Source: a virus (Duplodnaviria; Heunggongvirae; Uroviricota; Caudoviricetes). Taken from it: 17,042 nucleotides of DNA. The notes under the pieces were generated by a model. That model was not told where the DNA came from, searched no databases, and saw only the letters and a program-made list of their open reading frames with translations. Both the position numbers and the translations under genes were made by a program. Numbering within the stretch: the first letter of the stretch is position 1; each line of letters opens with the position of its first letter. Location: IMG/VR virus record IMGVR_UViG_2617270978_000019, one strand, 5' to 3'. This document shows, in pieces, positions 1,318 to 11,605 of the stretch.

Positions 1318-1418
1318 TCCGTTGAAGCCTGCTTTTTTATACTAAGTTGGCATTATAAAAAAGCATTGCTTATCAATTTGTTGCAACGAACAGGTCACTA
1401 TCAGTCAAAATAAAATCA
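1318..1418. other. attL: bacterial arm, 15-bp lambda core GCTTTTTTATACTAA (1331-1345), phage P-prime arm with Int arm-type sites
   Basis: Exact lambda core sequence; downstream CAGGTCACTATCAGTCAAAATAAAATCATTATTTG matches the lambda attP P-prime arm; about 74 bp from the int stop as in lambda. Confidence 0.93.
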
Positions 1419-2489
1419 TTATTTGATTTCAATTTTGTCCCACTCCCTGCCTCTGTCATCACGATACTGTGATGCCATGGTGTCCGACTTATGCCCGAGA
1501 AGATGTTGAGCAAACTTATCGCTTATCTGCTTCTCATAGAGTCTTGCAGACAAACTGCGCAACTCGTGAAAGGTAGGCGGATCCCCTTCGAAGGAAAGAC
1601 CTGATGCTTTTCGTGCGCGCATAAAATACCTTGATACTGTGCCGGATGAAAGCGGTTCGCGACGAGTAGATGCAATTATGGTTTCTCCGCCAAGAATCTC
1701 TTTGCATTTATCAAGTGTTTCCTTCATTGATATTCCGAGAGCATCAACATGCAATGCTGTTGGGATGGCAATTTTTACGCCTGTTTTGCTTTGCTCGACA
1801 TAAAGATATCCATCTACGATATCAGACCACTTCATTTCGCATAAATCACCAACTCGTTGCCCGGTAACAACAGCCAGTTCCATTGCAAGTCTGAGCCAAC
1901 ATGGTGATGATTCTGCTGCTTGATAAATTTTCAGGTATTCGTCAGCCGTAAGTCTTGATCTCCTTACCTCTGATTTTGCTGCGCGAGTGGCAGCGACAGG
2001 GTTTGTTGTTATATGGCCTTCAGCTATTGCCTCTCGGAATGCATCGCTCAGTGTTGATCTGATTAACTTGGCTGACGCCGCCTTGCCCTCGTCTATGTAT
2101 CCATTGAGCATTGCCGCAATTTCTTTTGTGGTGATGTCTTCAAGTGGAGCATCAGGCAGACCCCTCCTTATTGCTTTAATTTTGCTCATGTAATTTATGA
2201 GTGTCTTCTGCTTGATTCCTCTGCTGGCCAGGATTTTTTCGTAGCGATCAAGCCATGAATGTAACGTAACGGAATTATCACTGTTGATTCTCGCTGTCAG
2301 AGGCTTGTGTTTGTGTCCTGAAAATAACTCAATGTTGGCCTGTATAGCTTCAGTGATTGCGATTCGCCTGTCTCGGCCTAATCCAAACTCTTTACCCGTC
2401 CTTGGGTCCCTGTAGCAGTAATATCCATTGTTTCTTATATAAAGGTTAGGGGGTAAATCCCGGCGCTCATGACTTCGCCTTCTTCCCAT
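1419..2489 (-). CDS. int: Lambda-type tyrosine integrase Int
   Basis: 356-aa ORF beginning MGRRRSHERRDLPPNLYIRNNGYYCYRDPRTGKEFGLG, same length as lambda Int; C-terminal catalytic region with HELRSL and LLGH motifs; adjacent to attL. Confidence 0.97.
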   Translation of the reverse strand: MGRRRSHERRDLPPNLYIRNNGYYCYRDPRTGKEFGLGRDRRIAITEAIQANIELFSGHKHKPLTARINSDNSVTLHSWLDRYEKILASRGIKQKTLINYMSKIKAIRRGLPDAPLEDITTKEIAAMLNGYIDEGKAASAKLIRSTLSDAFREAIAEGHITTNPVAATRAAKSEVRRSRLTADEYLKIYQAAESSPCWLRLAMELAVVTGQRVGDLCEMKWSDIVDGYLYVEQSKTGVKIAIPTALHVDALGISMKETLDKCKEILGGETIIASTRREPLSSGTVSRYFMRARKASGLSFEGDPPTFHELRSLSARLYEKQISDKFAQHLLGHKSDTMASQYRDDRGREWDKIEIK

Positions 2490-2685
2490 TTCTGATCCTC
2501 TTCAAAAGGCTACCTGTTACTGGTCGATTTAAGTCAACCTTTACCGCTGATTCGTGGAACAGATATTCTCTTCCATCCTTAACCGGAGGAGGGAATATCC
2601 TGCATTCGCGCACCCATCGACGAACTGTTTCAAGGCTTCTTGGGCGTCGCTGGCGAGCGTTCCATTCCTGAAGTGTCAAGTACAT
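2467..2685 (-). CDS. xis: Excisionase Xis
   Basis: 72-aa ORF MYLTLQEWNARQRRPRSLETVRRWVRE, overlaps int start by 23 bp as in lambda. Confidence 0.95.
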   Translation of the reverse strand: MYLTLQEWNARQRRPRSLETVRRWVRECRIFPPPVKDGREYLFHESAVKVDLNRPVTGSLLKRIRNGKKAKS

Positions 2686-2710
2686 CGCAAAGTCTCCGCA
2701 ATTACACGCA

Positions 2711-2734
2711 AGAAAAAACCGCCATCAGGCGGCT
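2711..2734 (-). terminator. Intrinsic terminator (minus strand) just upstream of xis
   Basis: Minus-strand hairpin CCGCC-tgat-GGCGG followed by TTTTTT (plus A-run 2713-2718). Confidence 0.5.
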
Positions 2735-2903
2735 TGGTGTTCTTTCAGTTCTTCAATTCGAATATTGGTTACGTCTGCATGTGCTATCTGCGCCCACAGC
2801 ATCCAGTGGTCATAGCAGTCGCTGATGTTCTCGGCTTCGATAACTCTGTTGAATGGTTCTCCATTCCATTCACCTGTAACTCGGAAGTGCATTTATCATC
2901 GCC

Positions 2904-2960
2904 ATAAAACAAAACTCGCCGTAGCGAGTTCAGATAAAAGAAAACCCGCACTCGGCGGGG
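2904..2960 (-). terminator. Tandem intrinsic terminators (minus strand)
   Basis: Two minus-strand GC hairpins (AACTCGC/GCGAGTT 2913-2930 and CCCGC/GCGGG 2945-2959), each followed by a T-rich tract on the minus strand. Confidence 0.5.
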
Positions 2961-4195: not shown

Positions 4196-4951
4196 TTAAA
4201 CTGCTAGTTGCAATTGCATTTCAAAGCGGTCGCGTTGTTCACAATACGCAAGAGAACCAGGGCTATTGTGTGCCTCAATCCGTTCTACCATTAATGCTGC
4301 GCGTGTCTCTTTACTTGCAGGTGCATAAGCCCCAGACCAGGCTTTATCAATACCGATGTTTCGAGCGACGTTCGTACTATCTGCGCTGGCTAAGGGTAAT
4401 TTTGTGAATATCAGCGGATTTAACATGCGCAATCCATGTAGTTTCGTAACCGGCTGACCATGCCCATCAACAATGTGACGAATCAGGTCTTTCATTCTGG
4501 CTACCGCAAGAGTTGGGCGCTTTACGTCATAGTCGCCACAACTACCTATAGCCACTCGCGGAAACTCATTGCACAAATGAATAAATCGCTCGTCACTTTC
4601 ATTCATGTGCCACACTGGAACGCCAGCTAGTTTTCCGTGAGGCCACTCATTCAGAAGCGCATCATTTTCCTCCTCTCCGCCATCAATAACATCCGGGATA
4701 ATGGCAAAATCGAATCCTGGGTGATTCTTCCAGCGAGCAACAAACTCGTAGTAATCGCTCCAGTCGATTTTGTTTTTGCCAGCTGCTTTCCAGGCGGTGA
4801 ATGCACCGTTGTCCAGCGCGAACGACTGACAGTATTCAGCCGCGAGATTGATCTGGCCTGAATGCGCAAAACTGATAAACGCATGTCGCCCTTTCCATGC
4901 TCTCATTGCGCACGTATCAGGAGTAATAGGCCCACCGTGGTAGTGAATCAT
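4196..4951 (-). CDS. TGT-fold (tRNA-guanine transglycosylase-like) protein lacking the C-terminal zinc subdomain; candidate DpdA-like DNA-guanine transglycosylase
   Basis: Start at ATG 4951 with AGGAGA Shine-Dalgarno and 1-nt spacing from upstream stop; segments resemble TGT motifs: LDNGAF (cf. TDSGGF), VAIGSCGD (cf. AVGGLAVGE), KLHGLRM (cf. YLMGVG), STNVARNIG (cf. PTRNARNG); no CxCxxC...H zinc site. Confidence 0.5.
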   Translation of the reverse strand: MIHYHGGPITPDTCAMRAWKGRHAFISFAHSGQINLAAEYCQSFALDNGAFTAWKAAGKNKIDWSDYYEFVARWKNHPGFDFAIIPDVIDGGEEENDALLNEWPHGKLAGVPVWHMNESDERFIHLCNEFPRVAIGSCGDYDVKRPTLAVARMKDLIRHIVDGHGQPVTKLHGLRMLNPLIFTKLPLASADSTNVARNIGIDKAWSGAYAPASKETRAALMVERIEAHNSPGSLAYCEQRDRFEMQLQLAV

Positions 4952-4952
4952 C

Positions 4953-5360
4953 TCACTCTCCTTTGATGCGAATGCCAGTAGCGCGGATTGCATCGATGAC
5001 TTCAGAAACTTTGTATGCCATTACCGTTTGGTAATCATCGTGAAAATCTGTTCGATGAAGCATGCTGCTACGTTCCGGGAGCAGTATTTCCCGCGCTTCC
5101 AGTTCTGCAATGCGCTTTTTTGCTGCTTCCAGTTCATCCAGTAATTCCAGCACGGTAGCCGGATTAGCCTTGGCAACAAAATCCCGGACTGGCTTACAAT
5201 CAATCTCCGCAATGGGTTGATACGATGTGTAGCCATGCTGTCTTGTATAACTACCGTGACGAATAACGAAAAAATCACCATTTATTTTTTTAGCCTGCCA
5301 CTTATCTTCACCGGCTTTCTCTGCCGCTTCACGCAGTGCCTGAGAGTTAATTTCGCTCAC
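4953..5360 (-). CDS. Ea22-like protein (short variant)
   Basis: N-terminus MSEINSQALREAAEKA and C-terminus GIRIKGE match my memory of lambda Ea22 termini; central region differs. Confidence 0.6.
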   Translation of the reverse strand: MSEINSQALREAAEKAGEDKWQAKKINGDFFVIRHGSYTRQHGYTSYQPIAEIDCKPVRDFVAKANPATVLELLDELEAAKKRIAELEAREILLPERSSMLHRTDFHDDYQTVMAYKVSEVIDAIRATGIRIKGE

Positions 5361-5578
5361 TTCGAACCTCTCTGTTTACTGATAAGCTCCAGATCCTCCT
5401 GGCAACTTGCACAAGTCCGACAACCCTGAACGACCAGGCGTCTTCGTTCATCTATGGGATCGCCACACTCACAACAATGAGTGGCGGATATAGTCTGGTA
5501 GTTCAGACGACGCATTTTTATTGCTGTATTGCGCTGTAATTCTTCAATTTCTGATGCTGAATCAATGATGTCCGCCAT
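5357..5578 (-). CDS. TraR/DksA-family C4 zinc-finger protein (lambda Orf73-type)
   Basis: 73-aa ORF with CCECGD...CRTCASC four-cysteine motif typical of TraR/DksA C4 fingers. Confidence 0.75.
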   Translation of the reverse strand: MADIIDSASEIEELQRNTAIKMRRLNYQTISATHCCECGDPIDERRRLVVQGCRTCASCQEDLELISKQRGSK

Positions 5579-5627
5579 CTTTCATTAATCCCTGAATTGT
5601 TGGTTAATACGCTTGAGGGTAAATGCG

Positions 5628-5654
5628 AATAATAAAAAAGGAGCCTGTAGCTCC
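5628..5654 (-). terminator. Intrinsic terminator (minus strand) inside the leftward early operon
   Basis: Minus-strand hairpin agGGAGC-uacag-GCUCCuu followed by TTTTTTATTATT. Confidence 0.55.
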
Positions 5655-5676
5655 CTGATGATTTTGCTTTTCATGT

Positions 5677-5892
5677 TCACCGTTCCTTAAAGACGCCGTT
5701 CAACATGCCGATCGCCAGGCTTAAATGAGTCGGTGTGAATCCCATCAGCGTTACCGTTTCGCGGTGCTTCTTCAGTACGCTACGGCAAATGTCATCGACG
5801 TTTTTATCCGGAAACTGCTGTCTGGCTTTTTTGATTTCAGAATTAGCCTGACGGGCAATACTGCGAAGGGCGTTTTCCTGCTGAGGTGTCAT
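5677..5892 (-). CDS. Hypothetical small protein (orf61 position)
   Basis: ORF from internal ATG (MTPQQENALRSIARQ...); the longer 93-aa frame has an implausible Cys/His-rich N-terminus; weak ribosome-binding site. Confidence 0.4.
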   Translation of the reverse strand: MTPQQENALRSIARQANSEIKKARQQFPDKNVDDICRSVLKKHRETVTLMGFTPTHLSLAIGMLNGVFKER

Positions 5893-5968
5893 TGAACAAG
5901 TCCCATGTCGGCAAGCATAAGCACACAGAATATGAAGCCCGCTGCCAGAAAAATGCATTCAGTGGTTG

Positions 5969-6160
5969 TCATACCTGGTCTCTCTCATCTGCTTCTGCTT
6001 TCGCCACCATCATTTCCAGCTTTTGTGAAAGGGATGTGGCTAACGTATGAAATTCTTCGTCTGTTTCTACTGGTATTGGCACAAACCTGACTCCAATTTG
6101 AGCAAGGCTATGTGCCATCTCAATACTCGTTCTTAACTCAACAGGAGATGCTTTGTGCAT
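5969..6160 (-). CDS. Lambda Orf63-like protein
   Basis: 63-aa [26 protein letters not shown] in the position of lambda orf63, overlapping the next gene as in lambda. Confidence 0.7.
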   Translation of the reverse strand: MHKASPVELRTSIEMAHSLAQIGVRFVPIPVETDEEFHTLATSLSQKLEMMVAKAEADERDQV

Positions 6161-6321
6161 ACCGTCTCCCGTTTATTATTTATCTTCTCAGCCAGCCGCT
6201 GTGCTTTCAGTGGATTTCTGATAACAGAAAGGCCGGGAAATACCCAGCCTCGCTTTGTAACGGAGTAGACGAAAGTGATCGCGCCTACCCGGATATTATC
6301 GTGAGGATGCGTCATCGCCAT
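6133..6321 (-). CDS. Lambda Orf60a-like protein
   Basis: 62-aa [24 protein letters not shown] immediately upstream of exo with overlap. Confidence 0.65.
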
Positions 6322-6992
6322 TGCTCCCCAAATACAAAACCAATTTCAGCCAGTGCCTCGTCCATTTTTTCGATGAACTCCGGCACCATCTCGTCAAAAC
6401 TCGCCATGTACTTTTCATTCCGCTCAATCACGACATAATGCAGGCCTTCACGCTTCATGCGCGGGTCATAGTTGGCAAAGTACCAGGCATCTTTTCGCGT
6501 CACCCACATGCTGTACTGCACCTGGGCCATGTAAGCCGACTTTATGGCCTCGAAACCACCGAGCCGGAACTTCATGAAATCCCGGGAGGTAAACGGGCAT
6601 TTCAGCTCAAGGCCGTTGCCGTCACTGCATAAACCATCGGGAGAGCAGGCGGTGCGCATACTTTCGTCGCGATAGATGATCGGGGATTCAGTAACATTCA
6701 CGCCGGAAGTAAACTCAAACAGGGCTCTGGCGTCATTCTCGTACTGTTTTCCCCAGGCCAGCGCCTTAGCGTTAACTTCCGGAGCCACACCGGTGCAAAT
6801 CTCAGCCAGCAGGGTGTGAAAGTAGGACATTTTCATGTCAGGCCACTTTTTACCGGAGCGGGGTTTTGCTATCACATTGTGAACTTCTGAAGCCGTGATG
6901 ACGCCGAGTCGTAATTTGTTCCACGCATCATCTCCCTGTTCGACAGCTCTCACGTCGATCCCGGTACGCTGCAGGATAATGTCCGGTGTCAT
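6312..6992 (-). CDS. exo: Lambda exonuclease (Red alpha)
   Basis: 226-aa [43 protein letters not shown], lambda Exo length and sequence; overlaps bet. Confidence 0.97.
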
Positions 6993-7774
6993 GCAGCCAC
7001 CTTCTGCTCAGAGGCTTTCTGTTTCAGGAATCCAAGAGCTTTCACTGCTTCGGCCTGTGTCAGTTCTGACGATGCGCGAATGTCGCGGCGAAATATCTGG
7101 GAACAGAGCGGCAATAAGTCGTCATCCCATGTTTTATCCAGGGCAATCAGCAGAGTGTTAATCTCCTGCATGGTTTCATCGTTAACCGGAGTGATGTCGC
7201 GTTCCGGCTGACGTTCTGCAGTGTATGCGGTATTTTCGACAATGCGCTCGGCTTCATCCTTGTCATAGATACCAGCAAATCCGAAGGCCAGACGGGCACA
7301 CTGAATCATGGCTTTATGACGTAACATCCGTTTGGGATGCGACTGCCACGGCCCCGTGATTTCTCTGCCTTCGCGGGTTTTGAATGGTTCGCGGCGGCAT
7401 TCATCCATCCATTCGGTAACGCAGATCGGATGATTACGGTCCTTGCGGTAAATCCGGCATGTACAGGATTCATTGTCCTGCTCAAAGTCCATGCCATCAA
7501 ACTGCTGGTTTTCATTGATGATGCGGGACCAGCCATCAACGCCCACCACCGGAACGATGCCGTTCTGCTTATCAGGGAAGGCGTAAATTTCTTTCGTCCA
7601 CGGATTAAGGCCGTACTGGTTGGCGACGATCAACAATGCGATGAACTGCGCATCGCTGGCATCACCTTTAAATGCCGTCTGGCGAAGAGTGGTGATCAGT
7701 TCCTGTGGGTCGACAGAATCCATGCCGACACGTTCAGCCAGCTTCCCTGCCAGCGTTGCGAGTGCTGTACTCAT
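6989..7774 (-). CDS. bet: Red beta single-strand annealing protein
   Basis: 261-aa [62 protein letters not shown], lambda Bet. Confidence 0.97.
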
Positions 7775-7779
7775 CCGTT

Positions 7780-8076
7780 TTATACCTCTGAATCAATATC
7801 AACCTGGTGGTGAGCAATGGTTTCAACCATGTACTGGATGTGTTCTGCCATGCGCTCCTGAAACTCAACATCGTCATCAAACGCACGGGTAATGGCTTTT
7901 TTGCTGGCCCCGTGGCGTTGCAAATGATCGATGCATAGCGATTCAAACAGGTGCTGGGGCAGGCCTTTTTCCATGTCGTCTGCCAGTTCTGCCTCTTTCT
8001 CTTCACGGGCGATCTGCTGGTAGTGACGCGCCCAGCTCTGAGCCTCAAGACGATCCTGAATGTAATAAGCGTTCAT
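7780..8076 (-). CDS. gam: Gam (RecBCD inhibitor), short form only
   Basis: 98-aa [24 protein letters not shown] with AGGAGG Shine-Dalgarno; in-frame stop 19 codons upstream so no long Gam form. Confidence 0.93.
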
Positions 8077-8151
8077 GGCTGACCTCCTGAAAATGGCTGT
8101 GAAAATATCGCCCGCGAAATGCCAGGCTGATTAGGAAAACAGGAAAGGGGA

Positions 8152-8442
8152 TTAGTGATTCAGGCCGTTACCGCGTCCGTCGAGAAAAACTTCCACGAGC
8201 AAATCACGGGTATAAGTGCGCTCGATGCCGCGATGCAGATAAAGCCGTCCGCGTAAATTAGCTGATGCAGTCCAGGTACCATCTTTGTGTTTGACCAGCA
8301 TTCCTGGCATGACCGCACCTCGATTAACGGTCTGCGTTCCATAATGTTGATGAACCATAAAAACTCCTGCCCGTAAGCTGGGCTGCTGAACATATAGAGA
8401 CTTCTGCGCGTATTCAGGCGGTGGATGGCCGCCGGTTGTCAT
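8152..8442 (-). CDS. Hypothetical protein in the kil/cIII position (start uncertain; may begin at internal Met near 8301)
   Basis: 96-aa ORF ending 76 bp upstream of the gam start, as lambda kil does; no similarity recognised to lambda Kil or CIII; an alternative overlapping frame (8160-8393) exists. Confidence 0.4.
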
Positions 8443-8628
8443 AACTAAGCCGCCTCGTTGAAGCGACTAAGGTATGAAATGTTGAGTTAATTTCAGCTGG
8501 TCACACCGACGTTCACGCGTCCGTTTCACCCCTCGCACTCCCCGAAGCCTGCTGAAATTCAAACTGCGGATCTAAGCGGTCATCGCAACGGTGAATCAGG
8601 TAGTTGCCGTATCGTTGTGTTGTTGCGA

Positions 8629-8692
8629 TGAACTTATTTAAAACTATAGTTGTTTTATCGTCAACAACAAAAGTTGTTTTATTGGTTGTTTT
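8629..8692 (-). promoter_or_regulatory. OL/PL: leftward early promoter with operator repeats
   Basis: Minus-strand TTGACG (plus 8659-8664), 17-bp spacer, TTAAAT (plus 8636-8641); overlapping AAAACAAC / GTTGTTTT operator half-sites repeated 3-4 times, same motif as at OR. Confidence 0.65.
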
Positions 8693-8807
8693 AGATATAA
8701 CTGGTTGTATTTAGGATGGATTTATTTTGTGACTTGAATCGCATAGCGATAACTGAAGCGAGGTTATGGTGGTTTTTTTAACGGTGTGTGTGTGATGAGG
8801 GGAGGGC

Positions 8808-8834
8808 AAAAGAAAACCCGGCACGGTGACCGGG
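8808..8834 (-). terminator. Intrinsic terminator downstream of the repressor gene
   Basis: Minus-strand hairpin CCCGG-ucaccgug-CCGGG followed by TTTTCTTTT. Confidence 0.6.
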
Positions 8835-8955
8835 ATTCTTACGCCGTTAGGTAAAGATATTATTGCGGTGGCTTAATATTACTACCTAGAGCAAAGATAG
8901 GAATTAGTTCTTTACTGAATGAGCACAATGCCCAGTTGATAATTTTTAATTGGTA

Positions 8956-9645
8956 CTACCCATGCTTCCTATATGTCTGCGGCATGCTCCCAATAACCTT
9001 ACCGAAGATGAACACCCGGTTCATCTCGTCTTTCTCGATCGGGTCCCACGGTGAGTAGCTTTTGTTATCAGAGATGACCAGCAGCTTATCCTTCATCATT
9101 TGCAGGCGCTTTACATGGGCTGTGTCGTCGTACAGAAACGCATAGATACCATCACCGTCGAAAGATTTAACTGTGATATCAACGAACAGCAGATCACCTG
9201 GTTCGATCGTTCCTGACATGCTGTCACCACGCACGTTAATGATGCGGATATTTTCCGCCTTCCTACCATCGAACATGTGACGAGCATCGTCAAACGAGTA
9301 CTCAACCGAGCGTAGAACTTCTACAAACTCACGGTTGATGACTCCCGGCCCAGCACTGACTTCTATATCAAGAACGTCAATCTTGAAGTATTTGGAATGG
9401 CTGACAGTTGATTGTATTGGTTGCACTGTACTGTCTGACATATTTCCAACGCCAGAAGATAACCATTCTGCGCGCACACCCAAAGCGTTCGCGATCTCCA
9501 CGATTTTAGTTGTTTGATTAGCTTTCCCTGTTTCGATTTTCTGAATAGCAGCCTGGCTAACCCCGACCAAATCCCCAAGCGCCTTTTGTGTAAGGCCTCG
9601 CGCTAATCTGGCTTCTTTAAGTCTTTCTGAGAGTGTTGTTTTCAT
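8956..9645 (-). CDS. CI-type prophage repressor (N-terminal XRE HTH, C-terminal S24 LexA-like autopeptidase)
   Basis: Start at Met MKTTLSERLKEARLARGLTQKALGDLVGVSQAAIQKIE (HTH); C-terminal GDSM serine motif and HVKRL lysine of the Ser-Lys dyad; near-leaderless start downstream of PRM-like promoter. Confidence 0.9.
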   Translation of the reverse strand: MKTTLSERLKEARLARGLTQKALGDLVGVSQAAIQKIETGKANQTTKIVEIANALGVRAEWLSSGVGNMSDSTVQPIQSTVSHSKYFKIDVLDIEVSAGPGVINREFVEVLRSVEYSFDDARHMFDGRKAENIRIINVRGDSMSGTIEPGDLLFVDITVKSFDGDGIYAFLYDDTAHVKRLQMMKDKLLVISDNKSYSPWDPIEKDEMNRVFIFGKVIGSMPQTYRKHG

Positions 9646-9729
9646 AGTCCAAATGTACAACCAAGGTTTTATCCCATCAAACGAAAATGGTTGTTGACTA
9701 AAAACAACCATAGTTTTAATCTTGATTCA
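9646..9729. promoter_or_regulatory. OR region with divergent PRM and PR and palindromic operator
   Basis: PR: TTGACT (9694-9699), 17 bp, TAATCT (9717-9722); PRM on minus: TTGATG (plus 9675-9680), 17 bp, TACATT (plus 9652-9657), 6 nt before repressor ATG; palindrome ATGGTTGTT-n7-AACAACCAT (9687-9711). Confidence 0.7.
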
Positions 9730-9992: not shown

Positions 9993-10005
9993 CGCTCTTT
10001 AACAA
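9993..10005 (+). promoter_or_regulatory. boxA-like element (CGCTCTTTAACAA) downstream of cro
   Basis: Contains GCTCTTTAACAA, identical to the rrn-type boxA consensus core, at the position of lambda nutR; no convincing boxB hairpin follows. Confidence 0.5.
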
Positions 10006-10675: not shown

Positions 10676-11605
10676 ATGGCAAACACTGCTGAGATATTCA
10701 ATTTTCCAGTGCCGGATGCGGCACAAAAGGAGCCGCGCGTGGCAGATCTCGATGATGGTTATACGCGCATTGCAAATGAGTTGCTGGAAGCTGTGATGCT
10801 GGCCGGATTAACACAGCACCAGCTTCTGGTCTTTCTGGCTGTCATGCGCAAAACATATGGCTTTAATAAAAAACTGGATTGGGTTAGCAACGAGCAACTT
10901 TCCGAATTAACCGGGATATTGCCGCACAAGTGTTCTGCTGCAAAAAGTGTTCTGGTAAAGCGTGGGATTTTTATTCAGAGCGGGCGGAATACCGGCATTA
11001 ATAATGTGGTCAGTGAATGGTCAACATTACCCGAATCAGGTAAGAAAAATAAAGTTTACCTGAAAGAGGTAAATTTACCTGAATCAGGTAAAAAAAGTTT
11101 ACCCACATCAGGTAAAGGCGTTTACCCGAATCAGGTAAACACAAAAGACAAACTAACAAAAGACAATATAAAACCTTTTTCGTCCGAGAATTCTGGCGAA
11201 TCCTCTGACCAACCAGAAAACGATCTTCCTGTGGTGAAACCGGATGCTGCAATTCAGAGCGGCAGCAAGTGGGGGACAGCAGAAGACCTGACCGCCGCAG
11301 AGTGGATGTTTGACATGGTGAAGACCATCGCGCCATCAGCCAGAAAACCGAATTTTGCAGGGTGGGCTAACGATATCCGCCTGATGCGTGAACGTGACGG
11401 ACGTAACCACCGCGACATGTGTGTGCTGTTCCGCTGGGCATGCCAGGACAACTTCTGGTCCGGTAACGTGCTAAGTCCGGCCAAACTCCGCGACAAGTGG
11501 ACCCAGCTCGAAATCAACCGAAACAAGCAACAGGCTGGCGTGATAGCCGGCAAACCAAAACTCGACCTGACGAACACTGACTGGATTTACGGGGTGGAGC
11601 TATGA
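10676..11605 (+). CDS. O: Replication initiator O (lambda O family)
   Basis: Start MANTAEIFNFPV with GGGAGG Shine-Dalgarno; N-terminal domain resembles lambda O (ADLDDGY, RKTYG); internal iterons; overlaps P start. Confidence 0.9.
   Translation: MANTAEIFNFPVPDAAQKEPRVADLDDGYTRIANELLEAVMLAGLTQHQLLVFLAVMRKTYGFNKKLDWVSNEQLSELTGILPHKCSAAKSVLVKRGIFIQSGRNTGINNVVSEWSTLPESGKKNKVYLKEVNLPESGKKSLPTSGKGVYPNQVNTKDKLTKDNIKPFSSENSGESSDQPENDLPVVKPDAAIQSGSKWGTAEDLTAAEWMFDMVKTIAPSARKPNFAGWANDIRLMRERDGRNHRDMCVLFRWACQDNFWSGNVLSPAKLRDKWTQLEINRNKQQAGVIAGKPKLDLTNTDWIYGVEL
11027..11139. repeat. Replication origin iterons: five 19-bp copies of TTTACC(C/T)GAATCAGGTAAA-like repeat, followed by AT-rich tract to about 11185
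   Basis: Repeats at 11027, 11055, 11074, 11098 and 11121, each internally palindromic; located inside O as in ori-lambda. Confidence 0.85.

Follow-up and report, generated by a model that had tools for sequence, protein, structure and literature searches.

In phage lambda, the early left region runs in the order rexAB, OL/PL, nutL, N and tL1, and the block from kil to N carries the PL-proximal terminators tL1 and tL2. The put RNAs of HK022-type phages act through the zinc-binding domain of the RNA polymerase β' subunit and bring about terminator read-through in cis, while in the Qin prophage the DicF RNA precedes the division-inhibitor gene dicB in a leftward lambdoid operon, DicB being unrelated to KilR. 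The genes of the Rac prophage, including the lethal kilR, are silenced by Rho (PMC4150792), and the small RNA (sRNA) KilS derives from the 5' untranslated region of Rac kilR (PMC8175672). Here we analyze a 17,042-nt stretch of DNA from a member of the Caudoviricetes (IMG/VR record IMGVR_UViG_2617270978_000019; hereafter the window), in which the interval 8443-8955 separates a kil-position open reading frame (ORF) from the repressor gene and contains much of the untranslated leader of a leftward kil-gam-bet-exo operon. Judged from its sequence, the locus belongs to a common, working family of lambda-like E. coli phages with neither N nor an HK022-type antiterminator RNA.

The locus resembles lambda in that a repressor operon, OL/PL and a leftward operon of gam-bet-exo-orf60a/63/61 and, further on, xis-int follow one another in the same order, with a moron slot between the repressor and PL and 97-98.6% nucleotide identity in the Red and int arms, two terminators included. 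Window 1331-2947 (att, int, xis and orf55) is 98.6% identical to lambda 27724-29340, and window 5319-8158 (homologues of orf61/63/60a, exo, bet and gam) is 97.3% identical to lambda 30354-33193. Lambda homology ends at the gam/kil border, at lambda 33193. Unlike lambda, the window has no nutL, the block of kil, cIII, ea10, ral, N and nutL being replaced by a KilR-type kil and a 270-nt leader, and it carries Rac-type immunity genes, which Pfam identifies as an S24 repressor together with a YdaS-like Cro and a YdaT-like protein. With the kilR region of Rac it shares a homologous Kil family (phrog_294/PF27398), Rac-type immunity genes, the lack of N and a long non-coding stretch 5' of kil, which in Rac yields RNA (PMC8175672). 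On the other hand, Rac has ydaG, ydaF and sieB separating the repressor from kilR, while in the window the first gene read from PL is kil. Like the put RNAs of HK022 and HK639, the leader is a non-coding folded RNA at or near PL +1 of a lambdoid phage without N, a likeness of position only, and HK639 also has Kil downstream, in the order Kil-Gam-RecT; unlike HK022 put, the leader is present in a single copy, with none on the PR side. As in the Qin dicB operon, an RNA element stands ahead of a division-inhibitor gene in a leftward lambdoid operon. The region would work as the lambda early-left region minus the N step, and it lies outside both the N/nut and the put families.

We found that the gene-free 513 bp (8443-8955) are made of three parts, namely the scar-bearing end of the repressor operon, then OL/PL, then the leader. 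The initial annotation of this DNA had described about 510 bp without ORFs, and within 8443-8955 there is indeed no ORF of at least 40 aa on either strand, just six of 21-37 aa; likewise, N, rex, cIII and sieB are all missing between the repressor and kil, as it had stated. The leader and the gene that follows it contain these features:

8359-8629, minus strand: untranslated leader of the kil-gam-bet-exo operon, ~270 nt (conservation, no coding signature, frame-breaking indels).
8581-8630, minus strand: 5'-terminal hairpin H5, 9-bp stem (8 bp from the predicted +1) and 32-nt loop (inverted repeat of the initial annotation).
8572-8583, minus strand: mini-ORF ATG ACC GCT TAG in the 3' arm of H5, without a Shine-Dalgarno sequence (read from the sequence).
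8490-8558, minus strand: long-range helix P1, 8558-8548 with 8490-8500, 10 of 11 pairs (inverted repeat; 90% and 100% of alignment cells paired).
8467-8562, minus strand: arginine-rich pseudo-ORF, ..RGVKRTRERRCDQLK.., with a TTG start or a GTG at 8538 and stop TAG at 8469-8467, in the kil frame.
8470-8489, minus strand: G-free C/U/A tract with UCAAC repeats, between P1 and hp1 (alignment, composition).
8448-8468, minus strand: hairpin hp1, 9 bp, loop AAC, then UAGUUAU (folds; 99.5% of cells paired).
8417-8433, minus strand: hairpin hp2, GGCGG/CCGCC, 7-nt loop (folds; 98.7% of cells paired).
8152-8358, minus strand: Kil, a KilR-type cell-division inhibitor of 68 aa with its own GGAG Shine-Dalgarno sequence (GGAG-N5-ATG).

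The leader is present at a minimum of 90% identity in 2235 of 5426 complete E. coli genomes (~41%), nearly always in one copy per genome, and in 16 sequenced phages. Phage PhiR34_1, whose record gives E. coli K-12 MG1655 as the host and Q as the sole annotated antiterminator, is 99.8% identical to window 8100-9000. In heteroimmune phages, unrelated operator/promoter sequences are joined to the common leader exactly at the predicted +1. Among lambda-type gam loci in IMG/VR, about half have lambda kil and cIII and half have the leader with the KilR-type kil. Since the leader is this widespread and is shared across heteroimmune junctions, the absence of N is a trait of a large lineage with isolated phages, not a recent deletion; the suggestion in the initial annotation of a degenerate, N-deleted derivative finds no support, the same N-less PL-leader-kil junction recurring in the 16 phages and 2235 E. 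coli genomes. Literature searches with leader sequence strings returned no papers, and those for N-less phages of the present type returned nothing. The layout is already in public records but, as far as could be found, undescribed.

The 9-bp inverted repeat of the initial annotation, CATCGCAAC (8630-8622) and GTTGCGATG (8589-8581) with 32 nt between its arms, forms the stem of H5, and the only ATG in the minus strand of 8630-8443, at 8583-8581, reads ATG ACC GCT TAG, as had been reported. Across 63 distinct variants H5 was paired in 99.3% of cells, and its first two pairs are CG/UG and AU/GU across different promoter types. Within P1 lie 47 nt rich in G that include a small GACG/CGUC hairpin (8521-8508), and the 81-nt P1 element folds with -26.7 kcal/mol (z = -2.4). 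Four pairs vary in hp1, all changes being wobble-compatible, and hp1 and hp2 accompany kil in HK225 too, where they come after a gene and a terminator, not after a promoter. Over the same 63 variants, the five helices were paired in 96.9% of cells, compared to 23-49% when the partners were slid. The UCAAC tandem repeat (8480-8489, minus strand) has two copies here and in most variants, and three at the four loci L030, L042, L053 and L101. A 20-mer scan for diverged leader homologues, run on a single genome from each species, turned up just four matches, all by chance and in unrelated taxa, and no second copy of the leader was found elsewhere in the window, including the PR side, with blastn-short and nhmmer. 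Rfam 15 cmscan of the whole window (E<=10) gave five weak matches, none of them within 8340-8960, and DicF was not matched.

The length of the leader follows from the start of Kil. The initial annotation had begun the kil-position ORF at 8442 and put the leader at ~190 nt. That start is probably wrong: Kil is 68 aa long from the ATG at 8358, and since it occupies 8152-8358, the leader extends to ~270 nt. The family phrog_294 matches window 8152-8358 with E = 1.3e-37, its residues 1-68 covering exactly the whole 68 aa, and PF27398 is recorded on nearly all Kil homologues. Divergent homologues conserve just the C-terminal 68 aa, starting MVHQHYG; in HK225 the frame upstream of Kil is closed by a stop; and eight variants break the 96-aa frame while leaving Kil itself intact. 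We therefore rejected a 96-aa Kil model in favor of 68 aa on the basis of homologue extent, phrog_294, the HK225 stop and the frame-breaking variants. Among 92 distinct IMG/VR variants Kil is intact in 89, and its variable sites fall on codon positions 1:2:3 as 7:13:36. Near-identical DNA has been annotated as a Kil of 68, 77, 96, 129 or 139 aa (PV340567, OV696612 and PGAP models in E. coli genomes), and the 96-139 aa database models are over-extended, the long ones taking in untranslated leader.

The frame just upstream of Kil, 8359-8442 on the minus strand, has a PPP motif, and its first nine codons are kept in HK225 as a separate upstream ORF of 21 codons. Leaving aside one divergent block of three sequences, its polymorphisms are mostly synonymous in this frame (2/3 sites fully), and eight variants shift it out of register with Kil. 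Possibly, this segment is a translated leader peptide.

An N-like ORF with an arginine-rich motif in this interval had been named as the finding that would overturn the N-less reading. Such an ORF is present at 8562-8467, where it encodes RGVKRTRERR and is separated from the kil ORF, in the same frame, by the TAG at 8469-8467, but it fails the coding tests. Its variable sites among the 92 variants fall on codon positions as 5:3:5, with no third-position excess; 1-nt and 5-nt indels lie within it; and 38 of the 92 (41%) break it by a stop or a frameshift. The codon matching the TAG is CAG in PhiR47_2, 4A7 and Perceval, of which PhiR47_2 and Perceval have an annotated Kil of 129-139 aa and 4A7 the 68-aa form. 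In a sample of 37 variants anchored on gam rather than on the leader, position 8469 is T in 16 and C in 21, and the TAG is also present in the deposited phage PhiR34_1. Starts are limited to TTG and GTG, no usable Shine-Dalgarno sequence was found for the ORF, and neither the 139-aa nor the 71-aa upstream translation matched a Pfam or PHROG family. Given the codon-position counts, the TAG polymorphism, the indels, the lack of start signals and the lack of homology, we rejected ORF 8562-8467 as an N-like gene and judge the arginine-rich stretch to be non-coding, an artefact of translating the sequence.

Searches for other parts of an N system covered both sides of the immunity region. No N family was matched among the window ORFs scanned with Pfam and PHROGs (left arm and part of the right arm), where gam, bet, exo and int owe their assignment to 97-98% identity with lambda and not to a family scan. 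In the PL leader, 8340-8640 holds no boxA with up to three mismatches, and hence no nutL by this measure. On the other hand, an exact rrn/lambdoid-type boxA, GCTCTTTAACAA, lies at 9994-10005 (CGCTCTTTAACAA, 9993-10005, plus strand) in the nutR position directly after the cro stop, where by our own arithmetic ~0.002 exact matches are expected by chance in the window. The 50 nt after it have a minimum free energy of -4.1 kcal/mol (z = +0.2), with no boxB hairpin. Forty-six retrieved loci that share this immunity type also carry the boxA, which heteroimmune 4A7 lacks. It may be left over from an ancestor that had N, or it may serve as a Nus-factor site that counters Rho.

The initial annotation had alternatively proposed read-through by an N-independent mechanism such as a put-like RNA. 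To compare the leader with put, we used a covariance model of eight RNAs (HK022 putL and putR, HK639, phiEt88, CobraSix, S9-5, UPF_BP1 and PdC23), whose alignment has invariant motifs and compensatory pairs; BLAST with HK022 putL recovers HK75, O276, HK639, phiEt88, UPF_BP1, S9-5, CobraSix and PdC23. On its own training sequences the model scores 95 bits for HK022 putL, 51 for putR and 95 for HK639 putL. With filters off and E<=10, it found no match in the leader of the window, PhiR47_2, 4A7 or Perceval. The leader lacks the consensus and two-stem structure as well as the motifs GAACGGC, GTCGG and GGCGGGYTCAGGA, and was rejected as an HK022-type put RNA. The broader idea of N-independent early-left transcription is supported, while membership in the put family is rejected.

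The remaining parts of the interval, together with the repressor gene, are as follows:

8956-9645, minus strand: CI-type repressor (HTH and S24 peptidase), 229 aa (Pfam HTH_3 and Peptidase_S24; cI in the PhiR34_1 annotation).
8916-8955, minus strand: repressor gene 3' flank, which aligns with the cI end and gevT start of PhiR47_2 until TTCAGTAAA and leads into gevT in relatives.
8839-8914, minus strand: gevA-like (ASCH-domain) remnant, final ~76 nt (homology with PhiR47_2 and 4A7 reaches 8914; three-way alignment).
8817-8834, minus strand: intrinsic terminator of the repressor (PRM) operon, CCCGGTCACCGTGCCGGG and TTTTCTTTT (terminator scan; just 3' of the gevA stop in relatives).
8636-8715, minus strand: OL operators and PL (repeats of a ~17-bp AAAACAAC..GTTTT site).
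8664-8659, minus strand: PL -35, TTGACG (read from the sequence).
8641-8636, minus strand: PL -10, TTAAAT (read from the sequence).

In PhiR47_2 and 4A7, two genes separate the repressor from PL, annotated as GevT/GevA or as a hypothetical protein and an ASCH-domain protein. A gevT/gevA-like cassette at the rex position is carried by PhiR47_2, 4A7 and Perceval-type relatives. In the window, the repressor 3' flank and the gevA remnant are fused at a TAAA microhomology (8915-8911), and by alignment with these relatives 8839-8955 (minus strand) is the product of a precise loss of the gevT/gevA defence cassette at the rex position, with the terminator kept. The simple deletion scar that relatives were to reveal thus exists, but at the rex position, while the N position shows none. 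A literature search on GevA/GevT and the PhiR phage names found nothing relevant.

The OL site copies are inverted matches of the OR sites (19 nt, 95% complementary to 9701-9719), and PL, TTGACG-17-TTAAAT, mirrors PR, TTGACT-17-TAATCT. PL transcription would start at about A8629. A plus-strand promoter-like TTGCGA-16-TATAGT (8623-8650) overlaps PL/OL1 and faces the repressor 3' end; it may be there by chance.

Downstream of the leader, terminators occur in the leftward operon as the initial annotation had noted, in the form of minus-strand hairpins with T runs at 5656-5638, 2959-2945, 2931-2912 and 2735-2716:

5638-5656, minus strand: first strong intrinsic terminator in the leftward operon, following the orf61 homologue (same sequence as lambda 30669-30691).
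2716-2959, minus strand: three terminator-like hairpins, 2959-2945, 2931-2912 and 2735-2716 (terminator scan).

Nearly all loci retain the orf61 terminator, 50 of 51 of the leader type and 27 of 28 of the lambda-kil type. From PL to 5656, the minus-strand scan found only weak hairpins that lack a proper T run, except 6251-6229 within the orf60a homologue. Hairpin 2735-2716 lies just upstream of xis and of the pI box, and both hairpin and box are identical to lambda. This box, the lambda pI CII box TTGC-N6-TTGC (2698-2711, minus strand), stands just 5' of the xis start and is kept although the phage encodes a YdaT-like protein in place of lambda CII.

We consider it somewhat better than an even chance that the interval is the left immunity edge of a mosaic lambda-type prophage, with direct expression from PL and a leader that acts in cis. 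According to this explanation, the lambda kil-cIII-ea10-ral-N-nutL block was swapped for the leader and kil, and in its present form the prophage would never have carried N here. The repressor transcript would stop at the terminator 8834-8817, upstream of which the gevT/gevA cassette has been lost, while PL transcripts would start at ~8629 and run through the 270-nt folded untranslated leader into kil, gam, bet, exo and the orf60a/63/61 homologues. Since there is no strong intrinsic terminator from PL to the end of orf61, kil and the Red genes would be expressed directly from PL with no antiterminator needed, and since the N segment and the tL1 and tL2 terminators of lambda are gone, kil-gam-bet-exo would need no antitermination. 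The orf61 terminator would be the effective operon end, and the genes past it, including xis, would depend on leak-through or other promoters. H5, starting at the first transcribed base, would stabilize the transcript, and the helices further down, together with the G-free tract, would set the level of toxic Kil by Rho-dependent attenuation and/or translation control; Rho control of Kil is to be expected because the Rac kil homologue is kept silent by Rho. Most likely, then, the leader would act in cis on transcript stability and Kil level.

Several results weigh against this explanation. Stem variation is one-sided and wobble-compatible, with one double-sided change in all pairs and no real covariation, and the phage and E. 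coli leader copies are all at least 90% identical. The whole leader folds no better than shuffles (z = -0.1 to -0.5), and the C/G ratio of its 5' part is just ~1.6-1.7. Nucleotide diversity (π) is 0.032 in the leader core, close to the 0.037 of the kil-gam spacer and roughly half the 0.063 seen at the third positions of Kil. Since leader diversity is like that of the spacer, constraint is modest, and we rejected the idea that the leader is as conserved as the first and second codon positions of Kil (π 0.032 compared to 0.005 in the gam-anchored sample). Finally, xis lies behind four lambda-inherited hairpins, and the route of its expression for excision is not accounted for. This gap keeps alive two readings that we otherwise hold to be unlikely, one in which the leader is an antiterminator RNA and one in which the prophage is a defective recombinant.

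The latter, of which we are quite doubtful, joins a lambda int-xis arm that needs N-modified transcription to an N-less early region and predicts inefficient excision. The int-xis-orf55 arm with its terminators is 98.6% lambda, the closest isolated relatives have other integrase arms, and the cII-type pI box is without a lambda CII, a YdaT-like protein being there instead. However, the early genes seen in the window are all intact, isolated phages match its immunity and Red regions at 97-99.8% identity, and 8443-8955 shows no degeneration beyond the cassette scar. A slightly fainter prospect is that the leader is a new cis-acting processive antiterminator RNA, put-like in function and unrelated in sequence, which carries polymerase to xis and int. 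Its candidate core, H5 with P1 (8629-8480), would be a previously unrecognized RNA that reads through the lambda terminators to xis, int and the accessory genes, a claim that we hold to be just as improbable. A folded non-coding element at PL +1 in every immunity type, in a lineage without N and put that keeps lambda's own terminators (50/51 loci) and has the same arrangement in PhiR34_1, a phage deposited as isolated, is what such an RNA would call for. Yet neither the put model nor Rfam matches it, it occurs once per prophage with none on the PR side within 7 kb, it is under modest constraint and itself contains indel polymorphisms, the terminators may just travel with the 97%-identical Red module by recombination, and no essential lytic genes lie beyond them.

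Two further readings concern the product of the leader. It might be mainly the precursor of a trans-acting sRNA, or an attenuated short transcript ending at hp1, comparable to KilS and DicF; we regard this as improbable, if the least so of the four alternatives. Its position is that of KilS, which is annotated in K-12 (PMC8175672). The 9-bp GC-rich hairpin of hp1 is followed by UAGUUAU, and hp1 and hp2 stay with kil in HK225 despite the different upstream context. By contrast, the leader has no similarity to the Rac kilR upstream region or kilS (b4833), the best local alignment scoring 18 against a shuffled mean of 17.9; neither DicF nor any other Rfam family matches; and the U tract after hp1 is interrupted, so that the terminator scan does not call it. 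Least credible, and largely refuted, is a small N-like or Nun-like arginine-rich protein at 8562/8538-8467, fused to Kil in relatives (129-139 aa) and working with a nut-like site. For it speak the shared frame with kil, the CAG in place of TAG in relatives with 129-139 aa Kil annotations, the exact boxA after cro and the KRTRERR motif, which we take to resemble the arginine-rich motif of lambda N. The TAG in 16 of the 37 gam-anchored variants and in PhiR34_1, the stops and frameshifts in 38 of 92 variants, the 5:3:5 pattern set against 7:13:36 in Kil, and the TTG/GTG starts without a usable Shine-Dalgarno sequence or a Pfam/PHROG match all argue against it, as do the absence of the extension from divergent Kil homologues, the lack of boxA in the PL leader and the lack of boxB after the PR boxA.

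Some features elsewhere in the window bear on its wider context. Lambda homology starts at window 1331, corresponding to lambda 27724 in the attP core, which implies that 1-1330 is host flank and that the prophage sits at the lambda-type attachment site. The lambda-derived arms are separated by a non-lambda insert, where a 265-aa ORF (4196-4993, minus strand) matches PHROG 887 (queuine tRNA-ribosyltransferase-like) over the first half of that family only. Iteron-like repeats, TTTACCTGA...GGTAAAC (11028-11141), lie inside the O-like gene and are the source of weak false Rfam hits; they are probably the replication origin.

Present in ~41% of complete E. coli genomes, the module is among the commonest early-control layouts of lambda-like prophages, and it is a common layout without either of the textbook solutions to early antitermination, N/nut or put. 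If kil and the Red genes merely became promoter-proximal, this would show how cheaply evolution can get around N. If the leader instead acts on RNA polymerase or Rho, it would be a new regulatory RNA over a toxic cell-division inhibitor and prophage excision, and such an RNA would concern many clinical and commensal strains.

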